Assembly (NCBI GenBank): GCA_022760435.1
Contig: JALEFY010000037.1
Location: 211,944 to 275,943 of the forward strand
DNA length: 64,000 bases
Source: Neomegalonema sp.
GTDB lineage: Bacteria; Pseudomonadota; Alphaproteobacteria; Rhodobacterales; Rhodobacteraceae
Reading direction: 5' to 3'
The notes beneath the pieces were generated by a model that made no database searches, was not told the origin of the DNA, and was given only the letters and a program-made list of their open reading frames with translations. Within the stretch, counting starts at the first letter, position 1. Every line of letters starts with the position of its first letter. Positions 30,242 through 55,356 of this stretch are shown here, in pieces. The translations under genes and the position numbers were made by a program.

Positions 30242-30344
30242 TGTAATTCCTCCAAGGATGCGCGGCTTTCGTCGTTATGTTGTTGAGCCGCCGTGAAAAA
30301 GAGGCGGAGGCCTTACGCCCCCGCCAGTGGGGTCCGGGCAGGGA

Positions 30345-30869
30345 TTACACCCCGGACACGCTGACCGACCCGGCGAGCTTCGCGCGGGCTTCGGCCTGCA
30401 TTCTGAGAAATTCGGGATTGCTTGGCCGATGCATCGGCTTGCCGGCCCAGCCGTCTTGCAGGCGGGTCAGGAAATCGAGATGGACGATCTTGCGAGCGAA
30501 TTTCCAATGCCCGCCCTCGCGCCGCATCTCTTCCTCGTAATGGCCGACCGAGAGATAGCTCTCGCCGCCCTTCACCGACCAGTATTGCAGCGAGGTGGTG
30601 CCGGTGGCGCGATCGCCCGCGATGTCGATGGTCTCATTGCCGATGAAATGCCACATGTCCTCGGCCATCATCGGCACTTGCTCGGCGAAGAACTGGCGCA
30701 GATCCGTACGGCCCTTGGCGATGCCCAGACCCTGGAAATACCCGTCCTCGGTGAACAGATCGACGACCTCATCAACCCGGCGCTGATCGAGCAGGAAGCA
30801 GTAGCGGGCGCGAAGCTGGCGGATGGCCAGATCATCCTCGATGCGGGTGAGGCGCTCATTCATATCCAT
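30345..30869 (-). CDS. SnoaL-like / NTF2-like domain protein
   Basis: 174 aa with a typical NTF2-like alpha+beta cone sequence (DEVVDLFTEDGYFQ...). Confidence 0.6.
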   Translation of the reverse strand: MDMNERLTRIEDDLAIRQLRARYCFLLDQRRVDEVVDLFTEDGYFQGLGIAKGRTDLRQFFAEQVPMMAEDMWHFIGNETIDIAGDRATGTTSLQYWSVKGGESYLSVGHYEEEMRREGGHWKFARKIVHLDFLTRLQDGWAGKPMHRPSNPEFLRMQAEARAKLAGSVSVSGV

Positions 30870-30906
30870 GGGTTTCCTCCGTTTTTTTTCGTTTGTTGTT
30901 ATGGGC

Positions 30907-31743
30907 TTATGCCGAGACCGGCCCGGCGCGGGCGAGGATGGCGCGGGCTCTGGCGAGCACCGGCGCGTCGATCATCTGTCCGTCGATTTTCACCGCACCC
31001 GCAGAGCCTGCCTTCACGGCATGCAGCACGCGCTGCGCCCAATCGAGCAGCGCCGGATCGGGGGCAAAGCCATCACGGATCGCGGCGATCTGCCGGGGAT
31101 GGATCGCCATCTTGCCGCCAAAGCCAAAGGCACAAGCGGCGCTCGCGGCACGGCGGCTGGGCTCGGGATCGTCGATAACCGGCGTCACGCCATCGAGCGG
31201 CGGCGCCACCCCGGCGGCTCGCGCGGCGATCACCAGACGCCCGCGGGCCTGATCCATCAGCGCATGATCGGGGGAGATGCCAAGATCGAGCGCCAGATCA
31301 AGGCTGCCAAAGGCCGGGCAAAGCACCCCCGGTTCGGCGCAAAGAGAATGGGCGCGCTCGATGCCCAGAGCGGTCTCGAGCAGCGCAATGAGGGGAACTT
31401 TGGGCAAGGCAGCGCGGACCTGCGCCAGCATCGCGGGCGTTTCAGCCTTGGGGACCATCACAGCCGCGAGCCGCAGATCAGCGCCGCATTCGCGCAGCAA
31501 ATCGAGATCCGCCGCGCCGACTTCGCTGCGCGGATCATTGATGCGCAGGATTACCGGGCGCTCGACGATCCCATGAGCGGCGATATGCGAACGCGCCGCG
31601 CCCTTGGCCTCCGGCGCAACTGCGTCCTCGAGATCGAGGATCACCGCATCGGCGCCGCTGGCGGCGGCCTTTGCGAAGCGCTCCGGGCGATCACCGGGCA
31701 CAAAGAGCGGCGCGAGCGGGGTTGTCGTCAGCGCAGCGATCAT
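30907..31743 (-). CDS. HpcH/HpaI (CitE-like) CoA-ester lyase, citramalyl-/malyl-CoA lyase-like
   Basis: 278 aa with the motif FVPGDRPERFAKAAASGADAVILDLEDAV typical of citrate lyase beta / CoA-ester lyases. Confidence 0.8.
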   Translation of the reverse strand: MIAALTTTPLAPLFVPGDRPERFAKAAASGADAVILDLEDAVAPEAKGAARSHIAAHGIVERPVILRINDPRSEVGAADLDLLRECGADLRLAAVMVPKAETPAMLAQVRAALPKVPLIALLETALGIERAHSLCAEPGVLCPAFGSLDLALDLGISPDHALMDQARGRLVIAARAAGVAPPLDGVTPVIDDPEPSRRAASAACAFGFGGKMAIHPRQIAAIRDGFAPDPALLDWAQRVLHAVKAGSAGAVKIDGQMIDAPVLARARAILARAGPVSA

Positions 31744-32663
31744 CGCCCGCCCTCCGGCTGCGCGCCCGGAAGGGCTTCGTTGACCTGAGCTGGGCTGACC
31801 TGAGCTAGAGAAACCTGAGCTAGAGTGATTTGGGCGAGCATGCAGACCCGGCCCGCCTCATCCTCGGTCCAGACTTCCCCGCCCCGCGCGCAGATCGAGA
31901 ACGGCGCCGCCCCCCCGATCAGCGGACAAAGCCCGCGATAGCTGAACCGGCGCAGGGGCGCATCCGACTTCCGGGCAATCGCCTGCATCAGCACGCTCGC
32001 TTGCATCGGGCCGTGCACGACCAGCCCCGGATACCCCTCTTCCTGCATGGCGTAGGGCAGATCATAATGGATCCGGTGAGCGTTGCAGGTCAGCGCGGAG
32101 TAGCGAAACAGCAGCGGCGCACTCGGCTCGATCTGCGCCAGCACCTCGCCGCGCGCTCGATCGGGATCGGCTGGCGGCAAACTCACCGGCCCGGTCGCGG
32201 CAGGACGATAGACAATGTCCTGACGCTCGCTGATTGCCGGTCCGCGCCCGGTGGTCAACTCATGCTCGACGGTCACGAAGACCAGCGCCGAGGAGCGGCC
32301 TTGCTTGAACACGACATCGCGGATCACCGAGCGCCGCGTGAGCGCATCGCCCAGCCGCAACGCATCGTGGAACTCGAGTGCGCCGCCCGCCCACATCCGG
32401 CGCGGCAGGCTCACCGGAGGCAGGAAGCCGCCGCGCGGCGGGTGACCATCGGGCCCGAGCATTGCCAGCGGCGGGCAGGGGGTGAAGAGGGTCCAGTGGA
32501 GCCCCAGCGCCCCCGCACCCTGCCCCGTTGCAAAGATCGCCTCGAACCCGGCAACCGCCGCCTCATCGAGCGTGCAAGTCGCTTCCTCACGCCGCCCGAT
32601 CCACTGGCGCAGCACCGCCGGATCGTCCGAGGCGGCCGGAAGGGAAGGGCTCGCCGCGCTCAT
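31740..32663 (-). CDS. two-domain MaoC-like (R)-specific enoyl-CoA hydratase (itaconyl-/mesaconyl-CoA hydratase-like)
   Basis: An N-terminal FAS1-like hot-dog half and a C-terminal MaoC half. Its 3' tail carries LAQVS tandem repeats and overlaps the lyase gene by 4 bp. Confidence 0.7.
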   Translation of the reverse strand: MSAASPSLPAASDDPAVLRQWIGRREEATCTLDEAAVAGFEAIFATGQGAGALGLHWTLFTPCPPLAMLGPDGHPPRGGFLPPVSLPRRMWAGGALEFHDALRLGDALTRRSVIRDVVFKQGRSSALVFVTVEHELTTGRGPAISERQDIVYRPAATGPVSLPPADPDRARGEVLAQIEPSAPLLFRYSALTCNAHRIHYDLPYAMQEEGYPGLVVHGPMQASVLMQAIARKSDAPLRRFSYRGLCPLIGGAAPFSICARGGEVWTEDEAGRVCMLAQITLAQVSLAQVSPAQVNEALPGAQPEGGR

Positions 32664-33928
32664 CAGAACGACCTCGGCAGCTTGAGCACATGCTCGCTGA
32701 GATAGGACAGGATCAGGTTGGTGGAGATCGGCGCTACCTGATAGAGCCGCGTCTCGCGGAACTTGCGCTCGACATCATATTCGCTGGCAAAGCCGAAACC
32801 GCCATGAGTCTGAAGGCAGGTATCCGCCGCCTTCCACGACGCCTCGGAGGCGAAGAGCTTGGCCATATTGGCCATCGCGCCCACATCCTGCCCGGCATCA
32901 AAGGCGCGGGCGGCGGCATAGACCATCATCCGCGCCGCCTCGAGCTCCATGTAATTGCGGGCAATCGGGAATTGGACGCCCTGATTCTGACCGATCGGGC
33001 GACCGAACACGACCCGCTCATTGGCATAATCGCGCGACTTGCCGACGAACCAATGCGCATCGCCGACGCATTCCGCTGCGATGAGGATCCGCTCTGCGTT
33101 CATGCCATCGAGGATATAGCGCAGGCCCTTGCCCTCGATACCGATCAGGTTCTCGGCCGGGATCGTCAGATTGTCGATGAAGATTTCGGTGGTGGCATGA
33201 TTGAGCATCGCGTCGATCGGCTGGATGCGAAGCTGCTCGGGCGAGGCATCGCGCATATCGACCACAAAGACCGACAGGCCATCGGTGCGCTTTTCCACCT
33301 GATCGCGCGGCGTGGTGCGCGCCAGCAGGAGCATCAGATCGGAATGCTGGGCGCGGCTGGTCCAGACCTTCTGCCCGTTGACCACATAGGTATCCCCCTG
33401 ACGGGTGGCGGTGGTCTTGATCGCCAGCGTATCGGTCCCGGCGGTCGGCTCGGTGACGCCGAAGGCCTGAAGGCGCAGTGCGCCCGAGGCGATTTGCGGG
33501 AGCCATTTTTGCTTCTGCGCCTCGCTGCCATGACGCAGCACCGTGCCCATCGTGTACATCTGCGCGTGGCAAGCAGCGCCGTTCGAGCCAGCGGCATGCA
33601 CCGCCTCAAGGATCGCCACCGCCGCTTCGAGCCCCATACCGCTGCCACCATAGGCTTCGGGCACCAGCACCGAGAGGAACCCGCCTTCGGTCATCGCGGT
33701 GACGAACTCGCTCGGATAGGCGTCGCGCTTGTCCAGATCGCGCCAGTACTCGCCGGGGAACTGGGCGCAGAGCTTGCCCACGGCCTCGCGGATGTCGTTG
33801 TGATCAGCGCCGGTTTCAAACTTGAGATCGAGCACGCGTTCCCTTCCCTCGTATCGTGTATTGCCCGGATTGCATGGCCCGGGCATCTTTGACACGATGA
33901 GGCTCCCCCAGCCGCGTGCGAGGCACAA
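32663..33928 (-). CDS. acyl-CoA dehydrogenase
   Basis: 421 aa with the ACAD N, M and C domains and a catalytic-glutamate region near the C-terminus. Confidence 0.88.
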   Translation of the reverse strand: MCLARGWGSLIVSKMPGPCNPGNTRYEGRERVLDLKFETGADHNDIREAVGKLCAQFPGEYWRDLDKRDAYPSEFVTAMTEGGFLSVLVPEAYGGSGMGLEAAVAILEAVHAAGSNGAACHAQMYTMGTVLRHGSEAQKQKWLPQIASGALRLQAFGVTEPTAGTDTLAIKTTATRQGDTYVVNGQKVWTSRAQHSDLMLLLARTTPRDQVEKRTDGLSVFVVDMRDASPEQLRIQPIDAMLNHATTEIFIDNLTIPAENLIGIEGKGLRYILDGMNAERILIAAECVGDAHWFVGKSRDYANERVVFGRPIGQNQGVQFPIARNYMELEAARMMVYAAARAFDAGQDVGAMANMAKLFASEASWKAADTCLQTHGGFGFASEYDVERKFRETRLYQVAPISTNLILSYLSEHVLKLPRSF

Positions 33929-34004
33929 ATACCGAATTCCTCTATGGCTGATATCAAGATTGTATGGGATTTTTTCTCTGTAATATCATACGGATACGGC
34001 CATC

Positions 34005-34976
34005 ATGGATCTGCGCCAGCTCAAATATTTCGTCGCCATCGCCAAGCATGGCTCCTTCTCGAAAGCCGCCCTTTATCTGCGCATCGCCCAACCGGCGCTG
34101 AGCCAGCATGTGCGCAATATGGAGGAGGAGCTGGGCATGCCGCTCTTTCACCGGCTCTCGCGCGGAGTGACGCCGACCGAGGCCGGGGAGCGCATGCTGG
34201 TCAAGGCCAATGCGATCCTGAGCGATTTCAACGCCCTGCCCGATTTCGTGCGCGGCAAGGAACATGCCCCCGCGGGGCCGGTCCATATCGGGCTGCCGGG
34301 CACTGTCTCCGAGATCCTGGCATTGCCGCTCATCGAAACTGCGCTGGAGGCGTTCCCGGACGTGCAGATCCGCGTGGCGGAGGCGATGAGCGGCTTCGTC
34401 CTTGAATGGCTGCGCCGCGGGGAGATTGATCTTGCGATCATCTATTCGGGCGCAAACCCGGCAGGCGTGCGGACCACGCCAATCCTGAACGAGCAGCTTC
34501 ACCTCTTCGCCGCCCCGTCCCTGGCCCCGGCGCATTTGCGGCCCGGTCAGGAGATCGGCATCGACGAGGCTACGGCGCATGATCTGATCCTGCCTTCGGT
34601 CACCCACGGGCTGCGCGATCTCGTCAACGAGGCTGCGAGCCGGGCCGGGGAGACGATCAAGACCTCGATCGAGACCGACAGCTATCGGCAGATCAAGCAT
34701 CTGGCGGCGCGCGGGCTCGGCTTTGCCATCCTGCCGGAGAACGCCATTCGCCCGATGCTCGACGCTGGCGAGCTGGTGTCCTGGCCGATCCGCCGCGCGG
34801 ATCTGGGCCGCCAAGTCTATCTCGCGATGTCCACCGAGCGCCCGCTGAGCAGCGCCGCACGGGCGATCGCGCAGCACAGCGTCAACACCATCATCGCGCT
34901 GGTCGAGCAAGGCCAGTGGAGCGCGCAGCTCACCGCCCCGCAGATCACGCTCGATTTCGAGGCCGATCCGAGCTGA
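34005..34976 (+). CDS. LysR-family transcriptional regulator (divergent from the acyl-CoA dehydrogenase gene)
   Basis: N-terminal HTH MDLRQLKYFVAIAKHGSFSKAA plus a LysR substrate-binding domain. Confidence 0.92.
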   Translation: MDLRQLKYFVAIAKHGSFSKAALYLRIAQPALSQHVRNMEEELGMPLFHRLSRGVTPTEAGERMLVKANAILSDFNALPDFVRGKEHAPAGPVHIGLPGTVSEILALPLIETALEAFPDVQIRVAEAMSGFVLEWLRRGEIDLAIIYSGANPAGVRTTPILNEQLHLFAAPSLAPAHLRPGQEIGIDEATAHDLILPSVTHGLRDLVNEAASRAGETIKTSIETDSYRQIKHLAARGLGFAILPENAIRPMLDAGELVSWPIRRADLGRQVYLAMSTERPLSSAARAIAQHSVNTIIALVEQGQWSAQLTAPQITLDFEADPS

Positions 34977-35015
34977 TTTCGCCGAGCTGATTTCGCCGAG
35001 TTGATTGCGCCGAGT
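34972..35015. repeat. ~3.5 tandem copies of a 14-15 bp unit between convergent genes
   Basis: gagctgatttcgcc / gagctgatttcgcc / gagttgattgcgcc / gagttgacc. Confidence 0.6.
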
Positions 35016-35038
35016 TGACCGGGCTGAATGAACCGGCC

Positions 35039-35860
35039 TCAGAACCCGATCCAGCCGCGATCGAGCACCACCGCATCGCGCTCAGGGGCCCGGGCCCGAA
35101 ACGCGGCACCGTCAGCCTCGTCCCAGATCTCGAGCAACAGACGCTCGCCCGGATAGACGATGGAGGAAAACCGGGTATCGAGTGCGCTCAAGCCGCGCCC
35201 CGAGCGTTGGCAGAGCGCCCGCGCGGCATGACCGAGGGTGCAGAGCCCATGCAGGATCGGGCGCTTGAACCCGGCCGCCGTCGCACGCTCGGGATCGATA
35301 TGGAGCGGGTTGCGGTCTCCGGTCAGCCGATAGAGCGCGGCGGCGTTCTGCGGCAGTGAGAGGGTGATCTCGGCATCGGGCGCGCGCTCGGGCAGCACCG
35401 CCAGCGGCTCGGGCGCCGGATCGGACTGGGAGAGCCCGCCATCGCCGCGGCAAAAATTGGTCTGGGTGACCCGCGCGATCTCGCGCCCGCTGGCATCGGT
35501 GAGCCGGTTCTCGACCTGCACCACCGCGCCCTTGCCCGCGCCCTTGTCCACCACATGCGTGACCCGCGCCTGCCCGCTCAGCGCCGCCCCGATCTCGATC
35601 GGCGCCAGCATCAAGAGCCGCTGCTCGCCATGCACCACGCGGGTATAGTCGATCCCGCTCCCCGGATCCGCCATCCAGCCGCCCTGATGCGCGAGCACGA
35701 AGGCCATGGTCGGGAAGGCGGAGCGCAGCCGCTCCTCCCAAACCTGCGCGAGATCCTCGGCGCCGAACCCGATCGCAAGATGATAGAGCAGCGCGCGATC
35801 GGGCGTGCAAACCTCGCTGATCGGGGCAAAGGCGCGGTTCTTGACGGCTGAATACTCCAT
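35039..35860 (-). CDS. two-domain MaoC/hydratase-2-like enoyl-CoA hydratase
   Basis: 273 aa double hot-dog with the motif LYRLTGDRNPLHIDPERA; it resembles the hydratase part of MFE-2. Confidence 0.8.
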   Translation of the reverse strand: MEYSAVKNRAFAPISEVCTPDRALLYHLAIGFGAEDLAQVWEERLRSAFPTMAFVLAHQGGWMADPGSGIDYTRVVHGEQRLLMLAPIEIGAALSGQARVTHVVDKGAGKGAVVQVENRLTDASGREIARVTQTNFCRGDGGLSQSDPAPEPLAVLPERAPDAEITLSLPQNAAALYRLTGDRNPLHIDPERATAAGFKRPILHGLCTLGHAARALCQRSGRGLSALDTRFSSIVYPGERLLLEIWDEADGAAFRARAPERDAVVLDRGWIGF

Positions 35861-36747
35861 CAGATCGGATCCCAGTCGATCACCTGCGGCGAGCGCTCGA
35901 GCGGGGTGAGATTGCCCTTCATCGCCGGTATCGCGATCTGGGCGATGGTCTCGGGCGACCAGCCCTCGGCGTGATGGACCGAGCGCACCGGGCGCGGCTG
36001 GCTGAAGATCATGATCTCATTGGCGCGCACGCCGAAGATCTGGCCGGACACGCCCTGCGCCAGATCCGAGAGCAGATAGGTGACAAGCGGCGCGATCTTG
36101 TGCGCCTCCATCTTCTTGAGCTTTTCGACCCGCGCCGCGGCCTCTGGCGTGTCGGTCGGGATCGAGGCCGTCATTGCTCCCCAGGCGAAGGGAGCCACGC
36201 AGTTCGAGCGCACGCCAAAGCGCTCCATATCGAGGGCGATGGAGCGCGACAGGCCGACGATCCCCATCTTCGCGGCGGCGTAATTGGCCTGGCCGAAATT
36301 GCCGATCAGGCCGGAGGTCGAGGTCATATGGACGAAGGCGCCCGCCCCCTGCTCGCGAAAATGCGGGGCCGCGGCGCTGCTGGTGTAAAAGCTGCCATTG
36401 AGATGAACGGCCTGCACCGCCAGCCAATCCTCGGCGCTCATCTTGTGAAAGATGCCGTCGCGCACATTGCCAGCATTGTTCACCACCCCGTCGATGCGCC
36501 CGAAGGCTTCGATCGCGCGGGCAATGAGTCCTTCGCCGCCCTCCTGGGTGGCGATGCTGTCGGGCGAGGCGATGGCGGTGCCGCCCGCGGCCTCGATCTG
36601 TGACACCACCGCCGGGGCATTCGGCCCGGGCAGGTCATTGACCACCACCTTCGCGCCCGCCGCCCCGAGCGCCAGCGCGATCTCGCGCCCGATGCCGCCC
36701 CCGGCGCCGGTCACCGCGATCACCTTGTCCTCAACCGCACCTGTCAT
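35860..36747 (-). CDS. SDR-family 3-hydroxyacyl-CoA dehydrogenase-like oxidoreductase (MFE-2 dehydrogenase-like)
   Basis: TGAGGGIGREIA Rossmann motif and a YxxxK catalytic region. The start was chosen at MTGAVEDK; the track ORF extends 32 codons upstream. Confidence 0.82.
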   Translation of the reverse strand: MTGAVEDKVIAVTGAGGGIGREIALALGAAGAKVVVNDLPGPNAPAVVSQIEAAGGTAIASPDSIATQEGGEGLIARAIEAFGRIDGVVNNAGNVRDGIFHKMSAEDWLAVQAVHLNGSFYTSSAAAPHFREQGAGAFVHMTSTSGLIGNFGQANYAAAKMGIVGLSRSIALDMERFGVRSNCVAPFAWGAMTASIPTDTPEAAARVEKLKKMEAHKIAPLVTYLLSDLAQGVSGQIFGVRANEIMIFSQPRPVRSVHHAEGWSPETIAQIAIPAMKGNLTPLERSPQVIDWDPI

Positions 36748-36772
36748 TCCTCTGCTCCCGATCCCTGGCGGC

Positions 36773-37942
36773 TCACAGCGCCGCTTCTGTTCCGAAAATC
36801 GCCGTCGCCTGGCTCGACAACGTGCCGCCATTGCCATGGGCAAGCGCGATCTGCGCCCCTTCGATCTGCCGCGCGCCGCAGCCGCCGCGCAGCTGGCGCA
36901 CCGCCTCGATCACCGTGAAGATGCCGTACATCCCCGGGTGATAGGCCGAGAGCCCGCCGCCATTGGTATTGACCGCGAGCCGCCCGCCCGGCGCAATCGC
37001 CCCGCCCTCAACGAAGGCCCCGCCCTCACCCTTCGCACAAAAGCCCAGATCCTCGAGAAACAGGATCGTGTTGATGGTGAAGGCGTCATAGAGCGCGACC
37101 ACATCGACCTCTTCCGGGCCGAGCCCCGCCATCGCATAGGCGCGCGCGCCGCTATCGCTCGCGGCGGTGGTGGTGAAACCGGGCATCATCGAGACCTGCC
37201 GATGCCAGACCGCCGCCCCTGCGCCGAGCACATGCACCGGCGGCTGCGCCAGATCGCGCGCCCGCTCGGAGCGGGTGAGCACGAAGGCCCCGGCGCCGTC
37301 GGTCACCAGACAGCAATCGCGCACGGTCAGCGGATCGCTCACCATCCGCGCGTCGAGCACATCGGCCAGGCTCATCGGCTCGCGTTTGAGCGCTTCGGGG
37401 TTGAGCGCGGCCCAGGCCCGCGCCGCTACCGCGACCTCGGCGAGTTGCTCGCGGGTGGTGCCGAACTCATGCATATGCCGCGCGGCGACCAGCGCGTAGG
37501 AGCTCAGCGGGTTGAGCGGCTCATAAGGCGTCTCAAAGGGCTGCGGGTCGAGCACCCGGCGATAGCGCCCGATCTCGGCCCGGTTCAGGGTCGAGCTGCG
37601 CTGCGTCGAGCCATAGCAGACCAGCACCGCCTTGCACTGCCCGGACAACAGCGCATGCATCGCCGGCAGGATATGGGCGACGAAGCTCGAGCCGCCCATC
37701 ATCGTGCTGTCCTGAAAGCTTGGGCGCAGGCCCAGATACTCGACCACCGGCATCACCCACATCGCCGACGAGACGCTGGCGGTGCAAATGCCGTCGATAT
37801 CCTGAAGGGTGAGCCCGGCATCCGCGACCGCGCGCTTGGCGGCCAGGCCGAGGATCTCGAGCTCGGTATGGCCGGTGGCATCGAGCCCGGCAATCCCGAC
37901 CCCGGCAACCGCAACGCGTCCGCGCATCTCCTGCATGGTCAT
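36773..37942 (-). CDS. SCP2/SCPx-type thiolase-like protein (lipid-transfer-protein thiolase family)
   Basis: 389 aa thiolase fold with a Cys nucleophile region and C-terminal NGGGLS...GH motifs. It is paired with a DUF35 protein. Confidence 0.82.
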   Translation of the reverse strand: MTMQEMRGRVAVAGVGIAGLDATGHTELEILGLAAKRAVADAGLTLQDIDGICTASVSSAMWVMPVVEYLGLRPSFQDSTMMGGSSFVAHILPAMHALLSGQCKAVLVCYGSTQRSSTLNRAEIGRYRRVLDPQPFETPYEPLNPLSSYALVAARHMHEFGTTREQLAEVAVAARAWAALNPEALKREPMSLADVLDARMVSDPLTVRDCCLVTDGAGAFVLTRSERARDLAQPPVHVLGAGAAVWHRQVSMMPGFTTTAASDSGARAYAMAGLGPEEVDVVALYDAFTINTILFLEDLGFCAKGEGGAFVEGGAIAPGGRLAVNTNGGGLSAYHPGMYGIFTVIEAVRQLRGGCGARQIEGAQIALAHGNGGTLSSQATAIFGTEAAL

Positions 37943-38337
37943 GATGCGCTCCCCTCCGGGGTGAATTCGACACGGCCATCAACCACTTCGGCCCGCACGC
38001 GCATCCCGATGCGCACGCTCGCGGGCGCGATGCCCTTGACGCAGGACATCATCTGCACCCCTTCGGCGAGGGTGATGATGGCGACATTGTAGTCGCCGCC
38101 CTTGTCTGCTGGGCGGCGCACGGTGGTGGTCGAATAGACCTCCCCGAGCCCGGTCGGCTCGATGACGCTCAGATCCTCGCTCATGCAAGCCGGGCACAGG
38201 ATGCGCGGCGGAAAGATCGTGCGCGCGCAGGCATCGCAGCGCTGCACGGTGAAGCGCCCTTCGCGCAGGGCCTCGAAATAGCGCGCCTCCGGCCCCATAG
38301 CGGGCAGCGCATCGGCGGATCTGGCCGGTTCAGACAT
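37939..38337 (-). CDS. DUF35 Zn-ribbon / OB-fold protein (thiolase partner subunit)
   Basis: 132 aa with a CxxC...CxxC rubredoxin-like knuckle (CDACARTIFPPRILCPAC) and an OB-fold. Confidence 0.85.
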   Translation of the reverse strand: MSEPARSADALPAMGPEARYFEALREGRFTVQRCDACARTIFPPRILCPACMSEDLSVIEPTGLGEVYSTTTVRRPADKGGDYNVAIITLAEGVQMMSCVKGIAPASVRIGMRVRAEVVDGRVEFTPEGSAS

Positions 38338-38352
38338 GCTGTGGTTCCTCCC

Positions 38353-39141
38353 TCACTGCCCCTTGAAAGCGGGGTCTCTTTTCTCGCGAAAGGCCGCAAC
38401 GCCTTCGGAATAATCATCGCTCCAGCCGAGCGCCTGTTGCAGTTCCGCTTCAAGCTCGAGCTGGGCGGCAAGATCACGGCCCGGCGCCGCATCAATCGCC
38501 GTGCAGGCGGATTTGAGCGCCAGGCTAGGGGCGCTGGCCAGCCAGTCGATCAGACGGGTCTGTTCTTCGCCAAGCGCCTCATCCTCGATCACCGACCAGA
38601 TCAGCCCCCAGTCGCGCGCCCGCTCGGCACCGAGCGGCTCGGCCCGCATCGCCAGCCCTTTCGCCCGCGCGGTGCCGATGAGCTGGGGCAACATCCAGCT
38701 CGCCCCTGCATCGGGCATCAAGCCGATCCTGGCAAAGGCGAGCACGAATTTGGCCGAGCGGGTCGCGATGACCATATCCGCGCAGAGCGCGAGACTGACC
38801 CCGGCCCCCGCCGCCACACCGTTCACGAGGCAGACAAGCGGCACTTTGAGCGCCTTGAGCTTGAGGATCAGCGGCACGTAATTCGCCCGGATCGTCGCGG
38901 CGAGATCGTATTTCTGCCCCGCAGGCAGCGGCGCACGCTCCGAGAGGTCCTGCCCGGCACAAAAGCCGCGCCCGGCGCCGGTCAGGATCACCCCGCGCAG
39001 CCCCGGATGCGCAGCGGCTTGATCGAGGCAAGCGCGCAGCTCGACATGCATCGCCTCGTTCAGCGCGTTCAGCCGATCGGGGCGGTTGAGCGTGATAACC
39101 GCGACATCGCGCGCGAAGCTGAGAAGGACAGGCGCGCTCAT
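38353..39141 (-). CDS. enoyl-CoA hydratase/isomerase (crotonase) family protein
   Basis: 262 aa with the oxyanion-hole motifs GAGRGFCAGQDL and VNGVAAGAG. Confidence 0.88.
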   Translation of the reverse strand: MSAPVLLSFARDVAVITLNRPDRLNALNEAMHVELRACLDQAAAHPGLRGVILTGAGRGFCAGQDLSERAPLPAGQKYDLAATIRANYVPLILKLKALKVPLVCLVNGVAAGAGVSLALCADMVIATRSAKFVLAFARIGLMPDAGASWMLPQLIGTARAKGLAMRAEPLGAERARDWGLIWSVIEDEALGEEQTRLIDWLASAPSLALKSACTAIDAAPGRDLAAQLELEAELQQALGWSDDYSEGVAAFREKRDPAFKGQ

Positions 39142-40103
39142 AGCACCATCTCGGGCACGAGCGCCTGGCGCGCCGCATCATACTCACGCGTGAGCCGCTC
39201 GATAAGCTGAGCCGTCGGCACCACCGCCGGGATCTGGCCGACGCCCTGACCTGCGCCCCAGATATCCTTCCACACTTTCGGGCGCGGCTTGCCATCGCCA
39301 AAATCCATCTTGCGCGGCTGGGCGAGCGCAGCCTCTTGCGGATCGACGCCGGCCGCCACCATCGACGGGACGAGGTAATTGCCATGTGTGCCCGAAAACA
39401 TCGGGGTGTAGAGAATTTCCGCCGCGCTGCTTTCGGCCACCATCTGCTTGTGTCCGGGCGCGGCGATGCTCTCCTCGGTCGCCAGAAAGGCGGTGCCGAT
39501 ATAGGCGAAATCCGCCCCCAGGGCCTGGGTCGCGAGCACCGCGCGGCCATCGGCAATCGCGCCGCCGATCACGATGGCGCCGTCAAAGAAGGCACGGACC
39601 TCCGCCGTCAGCGCAAACGGGCTGAGACGCCCGCCATGCCCGCCCGCGCCTGCACAGACCAGAATGAGCCCGTCCACCCCGCTCGCAGCGGCCTTTTGCG
39701 CATGGCGCAGCGCGATGACATCGTGAAACACCATGCCGCCATAGCCATGCACCGCCTCTACCACCTTATCGGGTGCCGCGAGCGAGGTGATGACCAGCGG
39801 CACCTTATGGCGCACAATCGTCGCCAGATCCTCATCGAGCCGCGCGTTCGAGCCATGCACGATCAGATTGACCGCGAAAGGCGCCGCAAGCCGCCCGGTC
39901 TGCGCCTCAAAGCGGCGCAGGCGCTCGGTGATCTCGGTGAGCCAGCGATCGAGCTCCTCGGCCGGACGGGCATTGAGCGCCGGAAAGCTGCCGATCACGC
40001 CATGGGTGCATTGCGCAACCACCAGATCGACCCCGGAGGCGAGGAACATCGGCGCCCCGATCACCGGCAGGGACAAGCCGCGCTTGAGTTCAGCAAGTTT
40101 CAC
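39138..40103 (-). CDS. nitronate monooxygenase (NMO / 2-nitropropane dioxygenase-like FMN enzyme)
   Basis: 321 aa FMN TIM-barrel of the NMO family (GAPMFLASG...LILVCAGAGGHGG). Confidence 0.8.
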   Translation of the reverse strand: MKLAELKRGLSLPVIGAPMFLASGVDLVVAQCTHGVIGSFPALNARPAEELDRWLTEITERLRRFEAQTGRLAAPFAVNLIVHGSNARLDEDLATIVRHKVPLVITSLAAPDKVVEAVHGYGGMVFHDVIALRHAQKAAASGVDGLILVCAGAGGHGGRLSPFALTAEVRAFFDGAIVIGGAIADGRAVLATQALGADFAYIGTAFLATEESIAAPGHKQMVAESSAAEILYTPMFSGTHGNYLVPSMVAAGVDPQEAALAQPRKMDFGDGKPRPKVWKDIWGAGQGVGQIPAVVPTAQLIERLTREYDAARQALVPEMVL

Positions 40104-40564
40104 GGGGCGACCTCCAGAGCGACGCGGCGCAGCACGACACCGTCGCTCAGCCCCTGCTGAACCGCCTCGCCGCGTTGATTGAGCAGGGTGAAGCGGCGCG
40201 TGACCTTGCCGCTCGATCGGCTGCGCGTCGCCTCGACCTCGGTGATCTCGAGCCGCGTGCGCAGCGTGTCCCCGACGAAGATCGGCGCCAGGAACTGCCA
40301 GTCGCGCAGATTGGCCATGGCCACGATACTGTCGTTGAAGATGCCGATCTCATGCATCTGCCCGGTCGCCATCGCGATGCCGAGCGCGCCATGCACCACG
40401 CGCTGGCCGAACCGGGTCTCGCGCGCGAACTCGACATCGGCATGGATCGGATGCCAGTCGCCCGAAAGCATCGAGAACAGGGTGAGATCGGCCTCGGTGA
40501 CCGTGCGCCCCTTGCTCTCGAAACTCATGCCGGGCTGGAAATCCTCGAAGTAAAGACTGCTCAT
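40100..40564 (-). CDS. MaoC-family single hot-dog dehydratase
   Basis: 154 aa (MLSGDWHPIHAD...). Confidence 0.8.
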   Translation of the reverse strand: MSSLYFEDFQPGMSFESKGRTVTEADLTLFSMLSGDWHPIHADVEFARETRFGQRVVHGALGIAMATGQMHEIGIFNDSIVAMANLRDWQFLAPIFVGDTLRTRLEITEVEATRSRSSGKVTRRFTLLNQRGEAVQQGLSDGVVLRRVALEVAP

Positions 40565-42219
40565 GAAGTGGTTTCCGTTTCTGCGCGGATATGCGCCGCC
40601 GCCATCTCGCGCAGCGTGTTGCGTTTGATCTTCTGGCCATTGGCGCTTTCGGTCGTCGGGAAGGCGTCGACGAACCAGATCCGCTCGGGGATCTTGAAGC
40701 TGGCGAGCCGGGCCTTCAGATCGGCGCGCACGGTTTCGGCTCCAAGCCCCGCTCCCGGCTCGGCGATGATGAAGGCGACGGGCATGGTGCGGCCCTGGTG
40801 CTCGATGCCGACGGTCTGCACATCGGCGACGCCCGGCACTTCCTTGATCGCGTCGTCGATCTCGACCGGGTTGACGAGATAGCCGGCGAGCCGGATCGAG
40901 TCGCCCATGCGCGAGAGATAGACGAAGCTGCCATCGGCGCGGGTATAGCCCAGATCGCCGGAGCGAAAGAACCCGTCCGCCGTCATCGCCTGAGCGGTTG
41001 CCTCGGGATCGTTGAAATAGCCGGTGAACAGGCCCGGATGGCGCAGCTCGAGCTCTCCGGGTTCCTCATGATCGAGCAAGGCACCGGTTTGCGGGTCACG
41101 CGCCCGCACCGCGCCATCATCGCCCGCCGCCATGCGTCCGCCGCCCTGCACCCGCAGCGCTTGCGGATCGTCCGAGCGCCAATTGGCGCAGAGCGCCTGC
41201 ACCTCGCTCGACCCATAGACGCCGGAAAGCGGCAGCCCGCGCGCTTCAAGCTCGGCGACCAGATGCGCCGCGCCGGGATGAAAGGCGCCAAAGCCAAACA
41301 GCCTCGCGGCAGGAAACGGGCGCTCGCCGCTCGCGGCCTCGGCGATGCGGCGATACATCTCGTCACTGCCAAACAGATGGGTGACGGCGTGCTCGCGCAT
41401 CAACGCCGCCGCGCGCGCTGCGTCGAACGCATCGAGCATCACCACCGCGCCGCCGGCTGCGATCCCGGCGAGGATGCCGTTGAAGCCAAACACACCGCAG
41501 AGCGGCAAACCGGTAAAGACGCGCACACCCGGCGCCGTCATCTCCAAGGTTCGGATCGCGGCGCAGGCATGCCAGCTCAGGCTACGCTGCGAATGACAAA
41601 CCAGCTTGGGCGCCTTGGTCGTGCCGGAGGTGGTGAACAGCAGCGCCGGAAGATCCGCGTTCTCGACCGCCGGGGTGCTCGCAGGGCTCTGGGCGGTGAG
41701 ATCGAGCGCGACCACCGGGCGATCGAGCAACCCATCCGGCAGCGCATCGCCAGCGTCATAGAGCGCGATCTGCCGCAGCTCGGGCAGATCCGCCGGATCC
41801 ATGCTCTGCAAGATCGCGGGGAAGTCGATCTTGCGAAAGCCGGGTTCCAGGATCAGCAGCCGTGCCCCGGATTTACGCAGGATATGCGTGACCTCGCGGC
41901 CCCGATAGCGGGTATTGACCGCCGCCACCCCCGCACCCAGCCGCGCCGCCGCGAACAGCGTCACCAGCCAGAGCGGACGATTGACCATCCACAGCGCCAG
42001 AATATCGCCCGCGCCGATGCCCTGCGCCGCGAGCCAGCCCTGCATGCGCAGCACCTGTTCGTGAAACGCCGAGTAGCTCAGATCGCCCGTCTCGTCGAAA
42101 ATCATCACCCGCTCGGGTGCCTGCGCCAGATGCTGCTCATAAAGGCCGCCAAGCTGGGCAGGGAATGGCTGGGCAGGGAATTGCCGCGAAGGGTTTAGCC
42201 CTCTGGGTGTCTCGGTCAT
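40561..42219 (-). CDS. AMP-dependent acyl-CoA synthetase/ligase
   Basis: AMP-binding motifs LFTTSGTTKAPK and GYG...GD. The start was chosen at MTETP with GAGAG upstream; the 708-aa track ORF is an N-terminal extension. Confidence 0.82.
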   Translation of the reverse strand: MTETPRGLNPSRQFPAQPFPAQLGGLYEQHLAQAPERVMIFDETGDLSYSAFHEQVLRMQGWLAAQGIGAGDILALWMVNRPLWLVTLFAAARLGAGVAAVNTRYRGREVTHILRKSGARLLILEPGFRKIDFPAILQSMDPADLPELRQIALYDAGDALPDGLLDRPVVALDLTAQSPASTPAVENADLPALLFTTSGTTKAPKLVCHSQRSLSWHACAAIRTLEMTAPGVRVFTGLPLCGVFGFNGILAGIAAGGAVVMLDAFDAARAAALMREHAVTHLFGSDEMYRRIAEAASGERPFPAARLFGFGAFHPGAAHLVAELEARGLPLSGVYGSSEVQALCANWRSDDPQALRVQGGGRMAAGDDGAVRARDPQTGALLDHEEPGELELRHPGLFTGYFNDPEATAQAMTADGFFRSGDLGYTRADGSFVYLSRMGDSIRLAGYLVNPVEIDDAIKEVPGVADVQTVGIEHQGRTMPVAFIIAEPGAGLGAETVRADLKARLASFKIPERIWFVDAFPTTESANGQKIKRNTLREMAAAHIRAETETTS

Positions 42220-42245
42220 GCTCACACTCTCTGGCATCTGGGCGC

Positions 42246-43394
42246 TCACCCTTGCGAGCTGGGCTCGGGATGGGGGACAATGAATTCGCGGCGGATCGCG
42301 CAATCCTGAGCACCAAGCGCCGGCATCGCGCGCAAGGGGCGACGCCTCCCGTTCCACAGGACCGGGGCGGCGAGCACCTCGGCCGCCCCGTCCGGCGTTG
42401 CCACGGTCTGAAAGCTGGCACTGCGGTGGCGCGTGAGATCGGCGAGGCTCGAGACGCGCCCATTGGCGATGCGATGCGCTTCCAGATCTTCGATCAGAGC
42501 CGCGCTGGCTCGCGTTGCGAAACTCTCGGCGATGATCGCATCGAGCGCCGCCCGGTTCGCAACCCGCGCGACATTGCTGGCAAAGCGCGGATCGGCCACC
42601 AGTTCGGGCTGTTGCAGGACCTCGCGGCACAAGAGGCGCCATTCGTCTTCGTTCTGCACCGAGATGATGACGGCACCATCGGCGCAATCGAAAGCGCCAT
42701 AGGGGGCGATGGAGGGATGCGCGAGCCCCGCACGCGGCACCTCTTGCCCACCATAGCGGTGCAGCAGATAGGGGACATTCATCAGATCGGCCATGGTGTC
42801 GAACAGCGATACCTGGAGCTGCGCCCCGCGCCCGCTCTCCTCGCGCTCCAGCAGCGCCTCGAGGATCGCAGCATGGGCCACGAGCCCGGTGGTGATATCG
42901 CAGATCGAGATCCCCACCCGCGACGGCCCGCTTTCGGGGGTGCCGGTAACGCCGGACAGCCCGGTTTCGGCCTGGATCAGCAGATCATAGGCCTTACGAT
43001 CCGCATCGGGCGTCCCTTCGGCAAAGCCGCGGATCTCGCAGGTGACCAGACGCGGATTGCGCGCCATCAGCGCCTTGGCGCCCAGCCCGAGCTTCTCGGC
43101 CCGGCCCGGCGCCATGTTCTGGATGAACACATCCGCCTGCGCCAGCATCTCCAGCACCAGCGCCCGATCCTCGCCCTGCCGCAGATCGACCCGGCAACTT
43201 TCCTTACCGCGATTGATCCAGACGAAATAGCTCGAATGGCCATGTACAGCATCGTCATAACCGCGCGCAAAATCGCCGCCAGCGCGTTCGAGCTTGATCA
43301 CCCTTGCCCCGGCATCGGCGAGCTTGCAACTGGCGATCGGCGCCGCCACCGCCTGTTCGAGTGTGACGACGAGCAGTCTGTCCATGAAAGACAT
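42246..43394 (-). CDS. CaiB/BaiF (family III) CoA-transferase
   Basis: About 383 aa with the family III CoA-transferase N-terminus (RLLVVTLEQAVAAPIASCKLADAGARVIKLE) and a catalytic Asp region. Confidence 0.85.
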   Translation of the reverse strand: MSFMDRLLVVTLEQAVAAPIASCKLADAGARVIKLERAGGDFARGYDDAVHGHSSYFVWINRGKESCRVDLRQGEDRALVLEMLAQADVFIQNMAPGRAEKLGLGAKALMARNPRLVTCEIRGFAEGTPDADRKAYDLLIQAETGLSGVTGTPESGPSRVGISICDITTGLVAHAAILEALLEREESGRGAQLQVSLFDTMADLMNVPYLLHRYGGQEVPRAGLAHPSIAPYGAFDCADGAVIISVQNEDEWRLLCREVLQQPELVADPRFASNVARVANRAALDAIIAESFATRASAALIEDLEAHRIANGRVSSLADLTRHRSASFQTVATPDGAAEVLAAPVLWNGRRRPLRAMPALGAQDCAIRREFIVPHPEPSSQG

Positions 43395-43570
43395 GCGGGC
43401 CTCCCTTTCGCGGCTGATCATCGCGATTGGGGGGCGGATGGGTCAAATATGAAAAAAGTCTGGGAGCTATACGGCAACGCGCTTGGCTTGCAGCGAGTTG
43501 GCTTGGAGCGACTTGCGTTAGCAACGCACGGCGGAGCGGGCAGTGCAGCCCCGCCGTTATCAGTGCTGCC

Positions 43571-44689
43571 CTACTGCGCCGCTGCCGGTGTCGCGGCCAC
43601 TTGCGGCGCCAAGGGGTCAGCAACCAGTTCCGCATCACAGGCGCGCAGCCGGGCGAGGCCACCAAAGGCGCTGAAAGCGTTCTGCGCCGCCGCGGCGATC
43701 GCGGCCGGCGTGATCGGCCCCGGCGGGATCGCCTCTTTTGGGAAGATGACTGTCACCGTCTCCCCTGCCCCATAGACCCGGGTCGCACCACGACTTTGCG
43801 GAAGCGTCTCAACCCCGCGCAGCGCCTTGTGCAGCGCCACGGATCCTTCGCCGGAAATCCAGCCCGGGCCGATATCACCGATGATCGCCGGGCTCATCCG
43901 GCCTGAAACGGGCTCAAGCACCATGGCCAAATCGCCCCGATCAACGCCGCGCAGGGCAAATTCGCGCCCCGATGGCCGAATGATGAACGGCACTTCCAGC
44001 GCGTTGAGATAGCGCCCCTGCTCGCACAATCCCTTCTCCGGATCGGCGGCAAGGGCCGTCGGCGCGATCATGTAGCCAGCATAGGGCGCCTGCTGATTGA
44101 GGCAGGGCCGATATTTCTCCGGTCGGCGATCACCCTGCCGCGCGACGCCCCACAAGATCAGGCGGGCGCCATCCTCGGGCTCCCAATTCCCATCGCGTAT
44201 ATGTTCGAACTCCGAGACCAGCTTGCGGCACTGATCCGGGCGCACGATGCGCCGGTCAGCGGCAAAGACCGACATCGCATTGCAAACGGTATTGATCGCA
44301 AGGCCGGTCTCGCCCCACGGATCCTTGGGATGGAAGGAATTGGGCGCGCCATCGGTATTCACCGCCATCACCGAACGCAGGACAAGCGCTTGATCATCCG
44401 CAAGAACGACGCGATCACCGTCATAGCGGGTATTGTGCACGAAGCGCGATCCGAGCGCACAGGCGGCAGGCTCGGACGCGGGAGTTGCCTCTGTCTCGGT
44501 CGCCTCTGCCTGGGTACCAGCATCGACAGGCGCTTGCGCAGGCCCGGGCACCGATCCGGTCTGCAACGCATCCAGCGGGGTCTGACCCTCCGCCACACTT
44601 CCCGGAGCAGGCAAGATCTCCCCGGAATGGAAAAGCGCGCAGCCGCTCAGGCTCAGCACCGCGATCAGCGCAGCAAAACAGGATCTCAT
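43571..44689 (-). CDS. hypothetical lipoprotein
   Basis: Lipobox signal peptide MRSCFAALIAVLSLSGC, then a Pro/Ala/Thr-rich linker and a globular domain. The start was chosen at the lipoprotein signal. I recognise no family. Confidence 0.55.
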   Translation of the reverse strand: MRSCFAALIAVLSLSGCALFHSGEILPAPGSVAEGQTPLDALQTGSVPGPAQAPVDAGTQAEATETEATPASEPAACALGSRFVHNTRYDGDRVVLADDQALVLRSVMAVNTDGAPNSFHPKDPWGETGLAINTVCNAMSVFAADRRIVRPDQCRKLVSEFEHIRDGNWEPEDGARLILWGVARQGDRRPEKYRPCLNQQAPYAGYMIAPTALAADPEKGLCEQGRYLNALEVPFIIRPSGREFALRGVDRGDLAMVLEPVSGRMSPAIIGDIGPGWISGEGSVALHKALRGVETLPQSRGATRVYGAGETVTVIFPKEAIPPGPITPAAIAAAAQNAFSAFGGLARLRACDAELVADPLAPQVAATPAAAQ

Positions 44690-44898
44690 TGCGGCCTCCC
44701 CACTTGTCCCAGATCGAATCGAACCACTCCCCGAAGCTGAAGTGTTAACGCTCTCGGTCAATGCCGTGAACCCCTCTCGCTCCGATCGACGCGGGAGAGA
44801 ACCAGTGCGTGCCATATTATGCACGCGCGCGGCCGCGCCCAGAGGTGATGGCCAGAGGTTGCAACCATGGCGAATTCACCTTGCTGCATCGGTTTTGA

Positions 44899-46977
<2,079 letters not shown>

Positions 46978-47211
46978 CCCCTCTCCCGCCGCTTCGAAAA
47001 GGAGGGCGCACGCGCCCTCCGGTCATCATCGGTGCCGTTTAGAGACGGCGTCGGAGATGGTAATGCGCATTCCGACGCGGTCTGCTCATCCGGGCCATTG
47101 GCCGCTGCCCATTACAGCCCCCCATCGGTACGGATGAAGGATCTCTTGAGAGGGTACAGCGAAGCGAGAAATTGATCACAACAATCTATCGGCTGATGGA
47201 TAACGCGGCAC

Positions 47212-48930: not shown

Positions 48931-48968
48931 GACGCTGGCAGCAGCGTTGGTTTTGGCAATGGCTCGGC

Positions 48969-55350: not shown

Positions 55351-55356
55351 TGCCTC

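Follow-up and report, generated by a model that had tools for sequence, protein, structure and literature searches.

A compact operon with a cysteine-less thiolase-fold protein and its DUF35 partner, next to an itaconate/methylsuccinate-type gene cluster in Neomegalonema sp.

The window analysed here is a stretch of 64,000 nucleotides from a metagenome-assembled genome of Neomegalonema sp. (assembly GCA_022760435.1, contig JALEFY010000037.1, positions 211,944 to 275,943), and all coordinates below are positions within it. An NCBI protein entry with 100% identity bears out this origin. Nine co-directional open reading frames (ORFs) on the minus strand fill positions 35039-43421, and an earlier note on this DNA had taken them to be a single operon for the CoA-dependent, β-oxidation-like catabolism of an unusual acid. 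They are called genes A to I here, in the order 5′ to 3′, and the pair of genes F and G, which encode a DUF35 protein and a thiolase-fold protein without the nucleophilic cysteine, is at the centre of what follows. The domain assignments made for all nine proteins were borne out by Pfam: CoA_transf_3 in A, AMP-binding in B, MaoC in C, NMO (nitronate monooxygenase) in D, ECH_1 (enoyl-CoA hydratase, ECH) in E, zf-ChsH2 and OB_ChsH2_C (DUF35) in F, Thiolase_C_1 in G, adh_short, of the short-chain dehydrogenase/reductases (SDRs), in H, and MFE-2_hydrat-2_N with MaoC in I. The general nature of the pathway, CoA-dependent and β-oxidation-like with families that are also used for branched and steroid-side-chain acids, was likewise upheld, and we agree that the substrate is not readable from the sequence.

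The genes are very closely spaced. ATGA overlaps are read from the sequence at the ligase/MaoC (40561-40564), NMO/crotonase (39138-39141) and DUF35/thiolase-like (37939-37942) junctions, as described before, while the overlap at the MaoC/NMO junction (40100-40103), previously counted with them, is GTGA, the start codon of the NMO gene being GTG and not ATG. The SDR and hydratase-2 genes meet in TGATG, with a 1-bp overlap at 35860, and the CaiB-type transferase and ligase genes either in a further GTGA overlap (GTG at 42249) or with an ATG at 42237, 8 nt past the stop codon. There are, then, three ATGA overlaps, one or two GTGA overlaps and one of 1 bp, and two gaps, one of 15 nt between the crotonase and DUF35 genes, with the ribosome-binding site GGGAGG, and one of 25 nt between the thiolase-like and SDR genes, with the ribosome-binding site GGGAGCAGAGGA. 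The SDR starts at 36747, although its ORF at its maximum reaches 36843. For gene A the most likely start is the ATG at 43394 rather than the operon edge given earlier, 43421; GAAAGGGAGG precedes the ATG at 43394, and 43421 falls within a promoter-like site. The start-corrected span of the operon is 35039-43394. The nine-gene order and the pattern of spacing recur on three independent metagenome contigs (L085-L087), with proteins 61-87% identical to those of the window, so the compaction is not a matter of chance, and the nine genes form one compact operon that is real and conserved within the lineage.

A gap of 150 bp separates the operon from the next gene on its 5′ side (43571-44689, minus strand), which encodes a protein of 372 aa with no Pfam or NCBIfam match and an N-terminus that, judged by eye, resembles a lipoprotein signal (LSLSGC). 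The promoter-like site, a sigma-70-like TTGACC-18-GATGAT at 43417-43446 on the minus strand, lies in this gap and is the sole match of its kind in 33700-45000. The number of such matches does not exceed that in shuffled sequence, and the site is suggestive of a promoter by its position only. Just upstream of it is a perfect 15-bp palindrome, TGCGTTGCTAACGCA, at 43514-43528, which is adjoined by a 15-bp tandem repeat of 2.3 copies (43482-43515); together these could be an operator.

Gene G (36773-37942, minus strand) encodes a 389-aa protein with the thiolase fold (Pfam Thiolase_C_1, 227 bits) and gene F (37939-38337, minus strand) a stand-alone DUF35 protein of 132 aa, with a C-x2-C-x10-C-x2-C zinc ribbon and an OB fold (zf-ChsH2 and OB_ChsH2_C). 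In the PDB the best match to G is 4u4e, which has no assigned function (357 bits), followed by 9myr (CtSal, 175 bits), 6ok1 (TcLtp2, 168 bits), BbsB (138 bits, over the C-terminal half only) and thiolases at 127 bits or less. The entry 9myr was identified as CtSal from its Y-D-C-Y motif and its residue numbering, which is offset by 24 (checked at Tyr302, Cys304 and Gln352). The best characterised structural relatives of G are therefore the steroid side-chain retro-aldolases Ltp2-ChsH2 of Thermomonospora curvata and M. tuberculosis and Sal-Shy of Comamonas testosteroni (PMC12329534). The catalytic residues are Tyr294 (Y294DHF) and Tyr344 in TcLtp2 and Tyr302 and Cys304 (Y302DCY) in CtSal, where Gly89 takes the position of the nucleophilic cysteine of the SCP2 thiolases (PMC12329534). 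In HMMER alignments Gly84 of G (MGGSSF) coincides with G113 of 9myr, that is CtSal Gly89, and Tyr285 (LYDAFT, Y285-D-A-F) with the catalytic base, Tyr302 in CtSal and Tyr294 in TcLtp2, whereas the true thiolases BbsB and 7yvy read HDAF at this site in the same alignment. The third position of the motif is alanine in G, neither the histidine of Ltp2 nor the cysteine of Sal.

Both features are characteristic of the family. Among 80 metagenomic orthologues of G (54-74% identity) the motif GG[ST][SA][FY] is found in 76 and YDAF also in 76, and both are invariant in the 34 database and genome orthologues that were sampled. With glycine at the position of the nucleophile and the histidine changed to tyrosine, G cannot use the canonical thiolase mechanism, and it is improbable that G is a thiolase of the canonical kind; the same residues, Gly84 for Cys and Tyr285 for His, rule out the SCPx-type thiolase proposed previously. 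Most likely, judging from these residues and from its relatives, the pair G-F would carry out the retro-aldol cleavage of a β-hydroxyacyl-CoA, as a C-C lyase of the Ltp2/Sal kind. The association with DUF35 would seem to be obligatory: in a survey of 51 metagenome loci, each 9 kb or longer and carrying a G orthologue, a DUF35 gene adjoins or precedes the G homologue in all 51. Homologues of G are abundant, with at least 8000 in the databases at E ≤ 1e-50.

A candidate for the general acid is His335, and the residues in front of it vary in a restricted manner. Most orthologues have S-C-x here, 17 of 80 have S-Y-C/N, and S-A-Y is confined to the window protein and a relative with 83% identity, so that cysteine or tyrosine is present at 333/334 in 76 of 78 orthologues. 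Among close database homologues 118 of 120 have Cys-x at 333-334, as against Ala-Tyr in the window protein and the 83% relative. By analogy, this Cys333/Tyr334 toggle may reflect a catalytic residue exchanged in nature, reminiscent of the cysteine of Sal and the tyrosine of Ltp2.

The likeness to Ltp2 and Sal extends to the SCP2-type thiolase fold, the glycine in place of the nucleophilic cysteine, the base tyrosine in Y-D-x-[FY], the zinc-ribbon/OB partner and the presence of a MaoC-type hydratase alongside, and a resemblance of the operon to steroid or bile-acid degradation had been pointed out earlier. At the level of families this holds, and the content of the operon (an Ltp2/Sal-like protein, DUF35, MaoC hydratases, an Hsd4A-like SDR and a CoA ligase, whose weak NCBIfam matches include the steroid ligase models FadD3 and CasG) would fit steroid or bile-acid side-chain degradation with G-F as the Ltp2/Sal orthologue acting on a steroid-CoA. 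It is nevertheless highly improbable that this is what the operon does. G has only 168-175 bits to Ltp2 and Sal compared with 357 to the uncharacterised protein, the identity to them is low, and it differs from them in its YDAF and in the His335 candidate acid with the nearby toggle. The DUF35 protein has a canonical C4 ribbon and stands by itself, whereas in Shy and ChsH2 it is joined to a hydratase. Furthermore, a Pfam scan of 14 other window proteins and the inspection of related loci brought up no genes for steroid-ring degradation (KstD, KshAB, HsaA-D, IpdAB or FadE heterotetramers), and the orthologous clusters are in non-steroid contexts, with TctC or LivK-type transporters for small carboxylates and with itaconate genes.

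Thiolysis has to be considered as an alternative to retro-aldol cleavage. The bbs operon for the anaerobic β-oxidation of benzylsuccinate encodes BbsEF, BbsG, BbsH, BbsCD and BbsAB, where BbsB is a working thiolase. It shares six families with the genes described here (family III CoA-transferase, acyl-CoA dehydrogenase (ACAD), hydratase, SDR, DUF35 and thiolase-fold protein) and its substrate is a substituted succinate. In a route of this type a substituted succinate or other acid would be processed by an ACAD or the NMO-like enzyme, a hydratase and the SDR, and G-F, as a non-canonical thiolase, would then cleave the 3-oxoacyl-CoA with CoA to give two acyl-CoAs. The conserved Cys333 near to His335 in most G orthologues could be taken in this sense, an SDR gene is the commonest neighbour of the pair (17 of the 51 loci), and the order ACAD-ECH-SDR-DUF35-G is met with in L097, L099, L102, L103, L105 and L107. 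The Bbs proteins are also among the homologues of those in the operon, BbsB for G (138 bits), BbsD for H (126 bits), benzylsuccinate CoA-transferase for A (75 bits) and, weakly, BbsA for F, besides the ACAD and the crotonase, although this similarity, at 26-138 bits, is at the family level only. The hydratases here are of the MaoC and hydratase-2 types and not of the crotonase type, and the hosts are aerobic. At the active site the nucleophile position is glycine in 76 of 80 orthologues, the histidine of HDxF is replaced with tyrosine just as in both characterised aldolases, and the window protein itself has alanine, not cysteine, at 333. To our knowledge there is no thiolase that lacks the N-terminal cysteine. 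We therefore regard a thiolytic, bbs-like role as quite unlikely, and retain retro-aldol cleavage as the most likely reaction of G-F.

Gene I (35039-35860, minus strand) encodes a two-domain hydratase 2 of 273 aa of the type found in multifunctional enzyme 2 (MFE-2; Pfam MFE-2_hydrat-2_N and MaoC), with 141 bits to human MFE-2 hydratase 2 (1s9c). The hydratase-2 motif is defined as [YF]-x-x-[STG]-G-D-x-N-P-[LIV]-H, and gene I carries it as YRLTGDRNPLHIDPERA. Gene H (35860-36747, minus strand) encodes an SDR of 295 aa like the (3R)-hydroxyacyl-CoA dehydrogenases of MFE-2, with the motifs TGAGGGIG and YAAAK and with 317 bits to the yeast MFE-2 dehydrogenase (2et6) and 164-167 bits to 17β-HSD4 (1gz6 and 1zbq). 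By these similarities H and I are a split MFE-2, both halves of which are present as separate genes. Peroxisomal branched-chain β-oxidation uses α-methylacyl-CoA racemase (AMACR), MFE-2 and SCPx, and the mycobacterial counterparts are Mcr, Hsd4A and Hsd4B. The operon resembles that system in its two MFE-2 halves, in a protein, G, that is SCP2-thiolase-like, and in that A belongs to the AMACR superfamily; it differs in that A is closer to the CoA-transferases, G is not an SCPx-type thiolase and the genes are separate here and not fused.

Gene A (42246-43394, minus strand) encodes a family III (CaiB/Frc-type) CoA-transferase of 382 aa (Pfam CoA_transf_3, 339 bits). The nearest NCBIfam models are those for CoA:oxalate, succinate-glutarate and succinyl-CoA:mesaconate transferases, all scoring under their cut-offs, and the PDB matches to transferases range over 146-216 bits, with Frc-like proteins, YfdE and SUGCT at 172-216. 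An α-methylacyl-CoA racemase was ruled out by score, MCR and AMACR giving only about 57 bits. The protein is thus a candidate dicarboxylate CoA-transferase, of the itaconate/methylsuccinate type. Gene B (40561-42237, minus strand, alternative GTG start at 42249) encodes an AMP-forming acyl-CoA ligase of 558 aa (Pfam AMP-binding and AMP-binding_C), which scores 658 bits with the NCBIfam model of an uncharacterised type, PRK06164 (cut-off 677); no relative in the PDB was found under E 1e-40, so solved structures give no clue to its substrate. Gene C (40100-40564, minus strand) encodes a single-domain MaoC (R)-specific enoyl-CoA hydratase of 154 aa (Pfam MaoC_dehydratas, 90 bits), for which the nearest NCBIfam model is the C-terminal hydratase of PaaZ, a MaoC domain, at 70 bits, far short of its cut-off of 563. 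Orthologues of B with at least 40% identity are limited to L086 (69%) and L006/L007 (47%), and gene C accompanies the ligase in all of these.

Gene E (38353-39141, minus strand) encodes a crotonase of 262 aa, as had been proposed, and can be refined to the enoyl-CoA isomerase type like PaaG: it scores 256 bits with E. coli PaaG (4fzw_C) with the GL(I/M)PD motif kept and 321 bits with the NCBIfam model of PaaG, which together argue for an isomerase rather than an ordinary hydratase. A true PaaG orthologue was rejected, as the score is below the equivalog cut-off of 345 bits and there are no paa genes among the scanned proteins of the window, and the protein is termed PaaG-like only. In having E near to PaaG and C nearest to the MaoC domain of PaaZ the operon recalls phenylacetate catabolism, but the window has no genes for PaaABCDE, PaaK, PaaJ or PaaH.

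Gene D (39138-40103, minus strand, GTG start) encodes a flavin mononucleotide (FMN) enzyme of 321 aa (Pfam NMO, 77 bits). The family given for it earlier, that of nitronate monooxygenase, is right, though the nearest proteins are FabK/IpdC-like, the best relatives in both NCBIfam and the PDB being FabK enoyl-acyl carrier protein reductases. The steroid HIP pathway has a FabK-like enzyme, IpdC, that catalyses the reverse of the FabK reaction to form an enoyl-CoA, and so is an acyl-CoA desaturase in CoA-dependent catabolism (PMC5380842). This precedent, in which an NMO/FabK-type enzyme does the work of an ACAD, matters here because the nine-gene operon has no ACAD. Like IpdC, gene D is an NMO/FabK-family FMN protein in an operon for the catabolism of CoA thioesters (PMC5380842); unlike it, the D family is widespread and usually not clustered with CoA genes, and the likeness of the two is by way of shared FabK relatives. 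There are at least 512 relatives of D among 185,579 genomes, without conserved neighbours, and homologues 52-73% identical are spread over Alpha-, Beta- and Gammaproteobacteria, SAR86, Myxococcota, Dehalococcoidales and others (loci L001-L080), where only Nitratireductor sp. and Breoghania share further genes of the operon. The lack of conserved neighbours suggests that the family has a conserved stand-alone function.

Beyond the 3′ end of the operon is a gene for a LysR-family regulator (34005-34976, plus strand; NCBIfam LysR models), convergent with gene I and divergent from a second, lower operon at 25713-33928. The regulator gene is in the same place in L085 and L087 (76% identity) and is also found inside the Bordetella and Achromobacter clusters described below. 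A 14-bp tandem repeat, CCGAGCTGATTTCG, present in 3.6 copies (94% match, 34968-35018), begins in the final codons of the LysR gene (stop at 34976) and occupies most of the 62-bp convergent gap to the hydratase-2 stop (35039), in which no terminator hairpin is obvious.

The lower operon, entirely on the minus strand, begins with an Mcd-like ACAD (32663-33928, start probably at about 33835; Pfam Acyl-CoA_dh_N/M/1). This is followed by an Ich-like protein of 307 aa (31740-32663; Pfam FAS1_DH_region), for which the match to PDB entry 8khg, named 'Itaconyl-CoA hydratase' (196 bits, E 6e-57, residues 18-271), indicates homology only, and, with a 4-bp overlap, by a citramalyl-CoA-lyase-like protein of the HpcH/CitE family of 278 aa (30907-31743; Pfam HpcH_HpaI). 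The nearest NCBIfam model to the latter, RipC/Ccl, was built for the Yersinia type and gives 152 bits against a cut-off of 375. Next are a SnoaL_4 protein of the NTF2 fold (30345-30869, 174 aa, 96 bits) and a LivK-type ABC transporter (25713-30241; Pfam BPD_transp_2 and ABC_tran), composed of a binding protein (29084-30241), a permease (28128-28994), a permease-ATPase fusion (26420-28153) and an ATPase (25713-26423). The relatives of the binding protein in NCBIfam and the PDB are of the branched-chain-amino-acid type, generic for Leu/Ile/Val only, and give no clue to specificity. The itaconate/methylsuccinate cluster of the Pseudomonas type consists of ict, ich, ccl, mcd and msi and is present in P. 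aeruginosa (PA0878-0883) and C. necator (PMC12290011). By its predicted proteins the lower operon matches this module, with its ACAD, Ich-like and CitE/Ccl-like genes and with gene A grouping with the ict-position transferases of Alcaligenaceae. The differences are that no MmgE/PrpD (msi) gene is found in the window, the transferase is in the other operon, the SnoaL protein and the ABC transporter are additional, and the NCBIfam scores are below the equivalog cut-offs. In Achromobacter an ACAD 67% identical to that of the lower operon is directly upstream of an MmgE/PrpD gene, which fits the mcd-msi pair (PMC12290011).

The relationship of the two operons is best seen in the Alcaligenaceae, throughout which there are G orthologues of over 70% identity. 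In Bordetella genomosp. (L083/L084) the order is Ccl-like, CoA-transferase, Ich-like, ECH, ACAD, ACAD; then DUF35, G, ligase, TctC, NMO; then TctC, LysR; then SDR, hydratase-2, CoA-transferase, with identities to the window proteins of 73% for G, 68% for H, 54% for F, E and D, 48% for I and 44% for A and the Ich-like and Ccl-like proteins. Achromobacter aloeverae (L090) has the same arrangement, with the SDR, hydratase-2, a second CaiB-type transferase, the Mcd-like ACAD and MmgE/PrpD contiguous on one strand, and a metagenome contig (L091) is equivalent; G is 71-74% identical to that of the window in these loci. The earlier note had considered the nine genes as the unit, which they are as an operon, but functionally the unit appears to extend further, to 25713-34976, and to take in the LysR gene, the Mcd/Ich/Ccl-type genes and the ABC transporter.

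Across the 51 G loci the neighbours, apart from DUF35 in all of them, are an MFE-2-type SDR in 17, TctC in 17, hydratase-2 in 15, the first and second members of an ACAD pair in 13 and 10, an NMO-like gene in 4 and at least one itaconate/methylsuccinate-type gene in 7. These seven loci span at least three architectures, and as the survey is one of short metagenome contigs the number is probably an underestimate. The link between the core and the itaconate module is thus recurrent but not universal. Orthologues of genes B and C (at least 40% identity) are confined to the lineage of the window and, as ligase-MaoC-DUF35-G, to Nitratireductor and Breoghania, from which it follows that the core, DUF35-G with or without the SDR, hydratase-2, ACADs and a family III transferase, is widespread and the nine-gene arrangement lineage-specific. 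The exact gene order occurs in close relatives only, and we found no characterised orthologous operon in the literature on this combination of families or on the DUF35 clusters of Bordetella, Achromobacter and Cupriavidus; a study of dicarboxylates by random-barcode transposon sequencing does not mention these families (PMC12543098). A megablast search of plasmids with the whole operon gave only matches of about 700 bp inside the thiolase-like gene, at 73-76% identity. The DUF35/thiolase-like/hydratase-2 core is itself plasmid-borne in Methylobacterium aquaticum (pMaq22A_2p, L082) and Nitratireductor thuwali (p1536_2, L081), where it sits by paired ACADs or by electron-transfer flavoprotein genes and multiple CaiB-type transferases, and its occurrence on plasmids of several Alphaproteobacteria indicates that the module is mobile.

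The transferases provide a further connection. In Bordetella (L083) and Achromobacter (L090) the ict position, flanked by the Ccl-like and Ich-like genes, is occupied by a transferase to which gene A is 43-44% identical, and gene A is 53% identical to an A-like gene divergent from DUF35-G on the Nitratireductor thuwali plasmid (L081). The betaproteobacterial transferases that come after the hydratase form a separate clade with 73-82% mutual identity and no member in the window. In sequence, then, A groups with the ict-position transferases, and ligase B may substitute for the post-hydratase clade. Two transferase clades, one of them seemingly replaced by a ligase, argue for two different substrates or steps, and the suggestion that the transferase and the ligase are two activation routes for one acid is probably wrong.

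It could instead be that the two operons are functionally independent, the nine genes serving a monocarboxylic acid that has nothing to do with the C5-dicarboxylates and is branched, alicyclic or aryl-alkanoic, for example ibuprofen-like, terpenoid or naphthenic. Such independence would account for the 44 of 51 G-F loci that have no itaconate-type neighbour and for Nitratireductor and Breoghania, where ligase-MaoC-DUF35-G follows an ABC transporter and is accompanied by an IclR regulator and a thioesterase-NMO pair with no Ich-like or Ccl-like gene in view. Also in its favour, a search upstream of both operons for a LysR box or an operator that they might share gave nothing convincing, and no counterpart of the palindrome and tandem repeat was found upstream of the lower operon. 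Independence is less easily reconciled with the interleaving of the two gene sets in Bordetella, Achromobacter and L091, with the module and the methylsuccinate genes being in one apparent operon in L090, or with the grouping of gene A, and on balance we think independence unlikely, while giving it some weight.

The reading that we prefer, tentatively, as it stands a little short of being probable, is that the operon is a CoA-dependent, (R)-specific, β-oxidation-like module for a branched or substituted carboxylic acid, most likely dicarboxylic, which works together with the lower operon. The acid would be activated by ligase B. The flavoenzyme D would introduce or remove an α,β double bond, a step for which other hosts would use the ACAD pair, and the PaaG-like isomerase E would convert a 3-ene to the 2-ene. 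Water would be added by hydratase-2 I, and possibly also by the MaoC protein C, to give a (3R)-hydroxyacyl-CoA, and secondary 3-hydroxy intermediates would be oxidised by the SDR H where a normal cycle is possible. Where it is barred, as for instance with a tertiary or 2-substituted β-hydroxyacyl-CoA, G-F would cleave the C-C bond by a retro-aldol reaction, by analogy with Ltp2 and Sal and with Tyr285 as the base, to a carbonyl compound and a short acyl-CoA. A branched dicarboxylate of the C5 type, or the corresponding CoA ester, might then pass through A and the Mcd-like, Ich-like and Ccl-like enzymes to pyruvate and acetyl-CoA; the lower route would run from mesaconyl-C4-CoA by way of citramalyl-CoA to these products, with transferase A as its likely CoA-transferase. 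Substituted succinates are attractive as the class of substrate, since they would unify the itaconate and methylsuccinate genes with the family-level similarity to bbs, and methyl-branched dicarboxylates are equally possible.

A number of observations weigh against this proposal. The register of the general acid is ambiguous, as Tyr334 meets Tyr344 of Ltp2 only with a one-residue gap, and the gap-free register, which is consistent with Gln352 of CtSal, puts the invariant His335 at this position; most orthologues, moreover, carry Cys333 where the window protein has Ala333-Tyr334. The frequency of the SDR as a neighbour (17/51) and the gene orders that mimic bbs keep thiolysis by G-F in contention. 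Neighbours of the itaconate/methylsuccinate type are seen in only 7 of the 51 loci, many G-F clusters being without them, and the identity of gene A to the ict-position transferases of L083 and L090 is only 43-44%. Finally, the homologues of gene D elsewhere are mostly stand-alone, which leaves its part in the pathway weakly supported.

A wider proposal can be made, although it is unlikely to be right. G-F would belong to a clade, very widely distributed and so far uncharacterised, of thiolase-fold C-C lyases that lack the cysteine and depend on DUF35 (GGSSF, YDAF and [C/Y]-x-HPGMYG). Their substrates would be small and not steroids: succinyl-CoAs with a substituent, or the CoA esters of other branched dicarboxylates. 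In Alcaligenaceae, Bordetella among them, and in some Alphaproteobacteria they would mark out an upper pathway, not recognised until now, that feeds the itaconate/methylsuccinate route or runs in parallel with it, and the Cys333/Tyr334 toggle would be a natural swap of the general acid, like that between Sal and Ltp2.

Elsewhere in the window a thiamine pyrophosphate riboswitch (Rfam RF00059, 68 bits) at 44917-45035 on the plus strand lies upstream of thiC (ORF 44911-46977), and from its position the true start of ThiC must be downstream of 45035, the ORF start at 44911 being spurious. A stretch of low GC content at about 46000-52500 (0.56-0.60 compared with about 0.65 elsewhere), which encodes a KAP-family P-loop NTPase (47212-48618), is near to a tRNA-Asn gene (53245-53319, minus strand) and has the appearance of an island that became integrated. 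Another cluster for CoA-dependent catabolism, at 53528-60928 on the minus strand, encodes a DctPQM TRAP transporter, an Amidohydro_2 protein, a 620-aa AMP-binding ligase and a 533-aa ACAD with ACOX-like similarity at its C-terminus.

All of the components of the nine-gene operon come from known families, and it follows, in variant form, the logic of known CoA-dependent catabolism; less ordinary are a very large, apparently mis-annotated, cysteine-less clade that lies outside steroid metabolism and seems bound to a DUF35 partner, and its recurrent embedding among itaconate/methylsuccinate genes. Should our reading be wrong, this is one more uncharacterised operon of the β-oxidation type. If it is correct, thousands of proteins now called 'thiolase' or 'acetyl-CoA acetyltransferase' (NCBIfam PRK06158) are mis-named, and the idea of the Ltp2/Sal aldolase reaches beyond steroids. 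A stand-alone DUF35-lyase pair acting on small CoA esters would also be a useful biocatalyst for C-C bonds. The environmental source of the substrate methylsuccinate has been described as unclear (PMC12290011), and the itaconate/methylsuccinate pathway, which matters in host-pathogen metabolism, would acquire a candidate for a pathway that feeds it or is a sister to it, and that is open to genetic work in Achromobacter and Bordetella.

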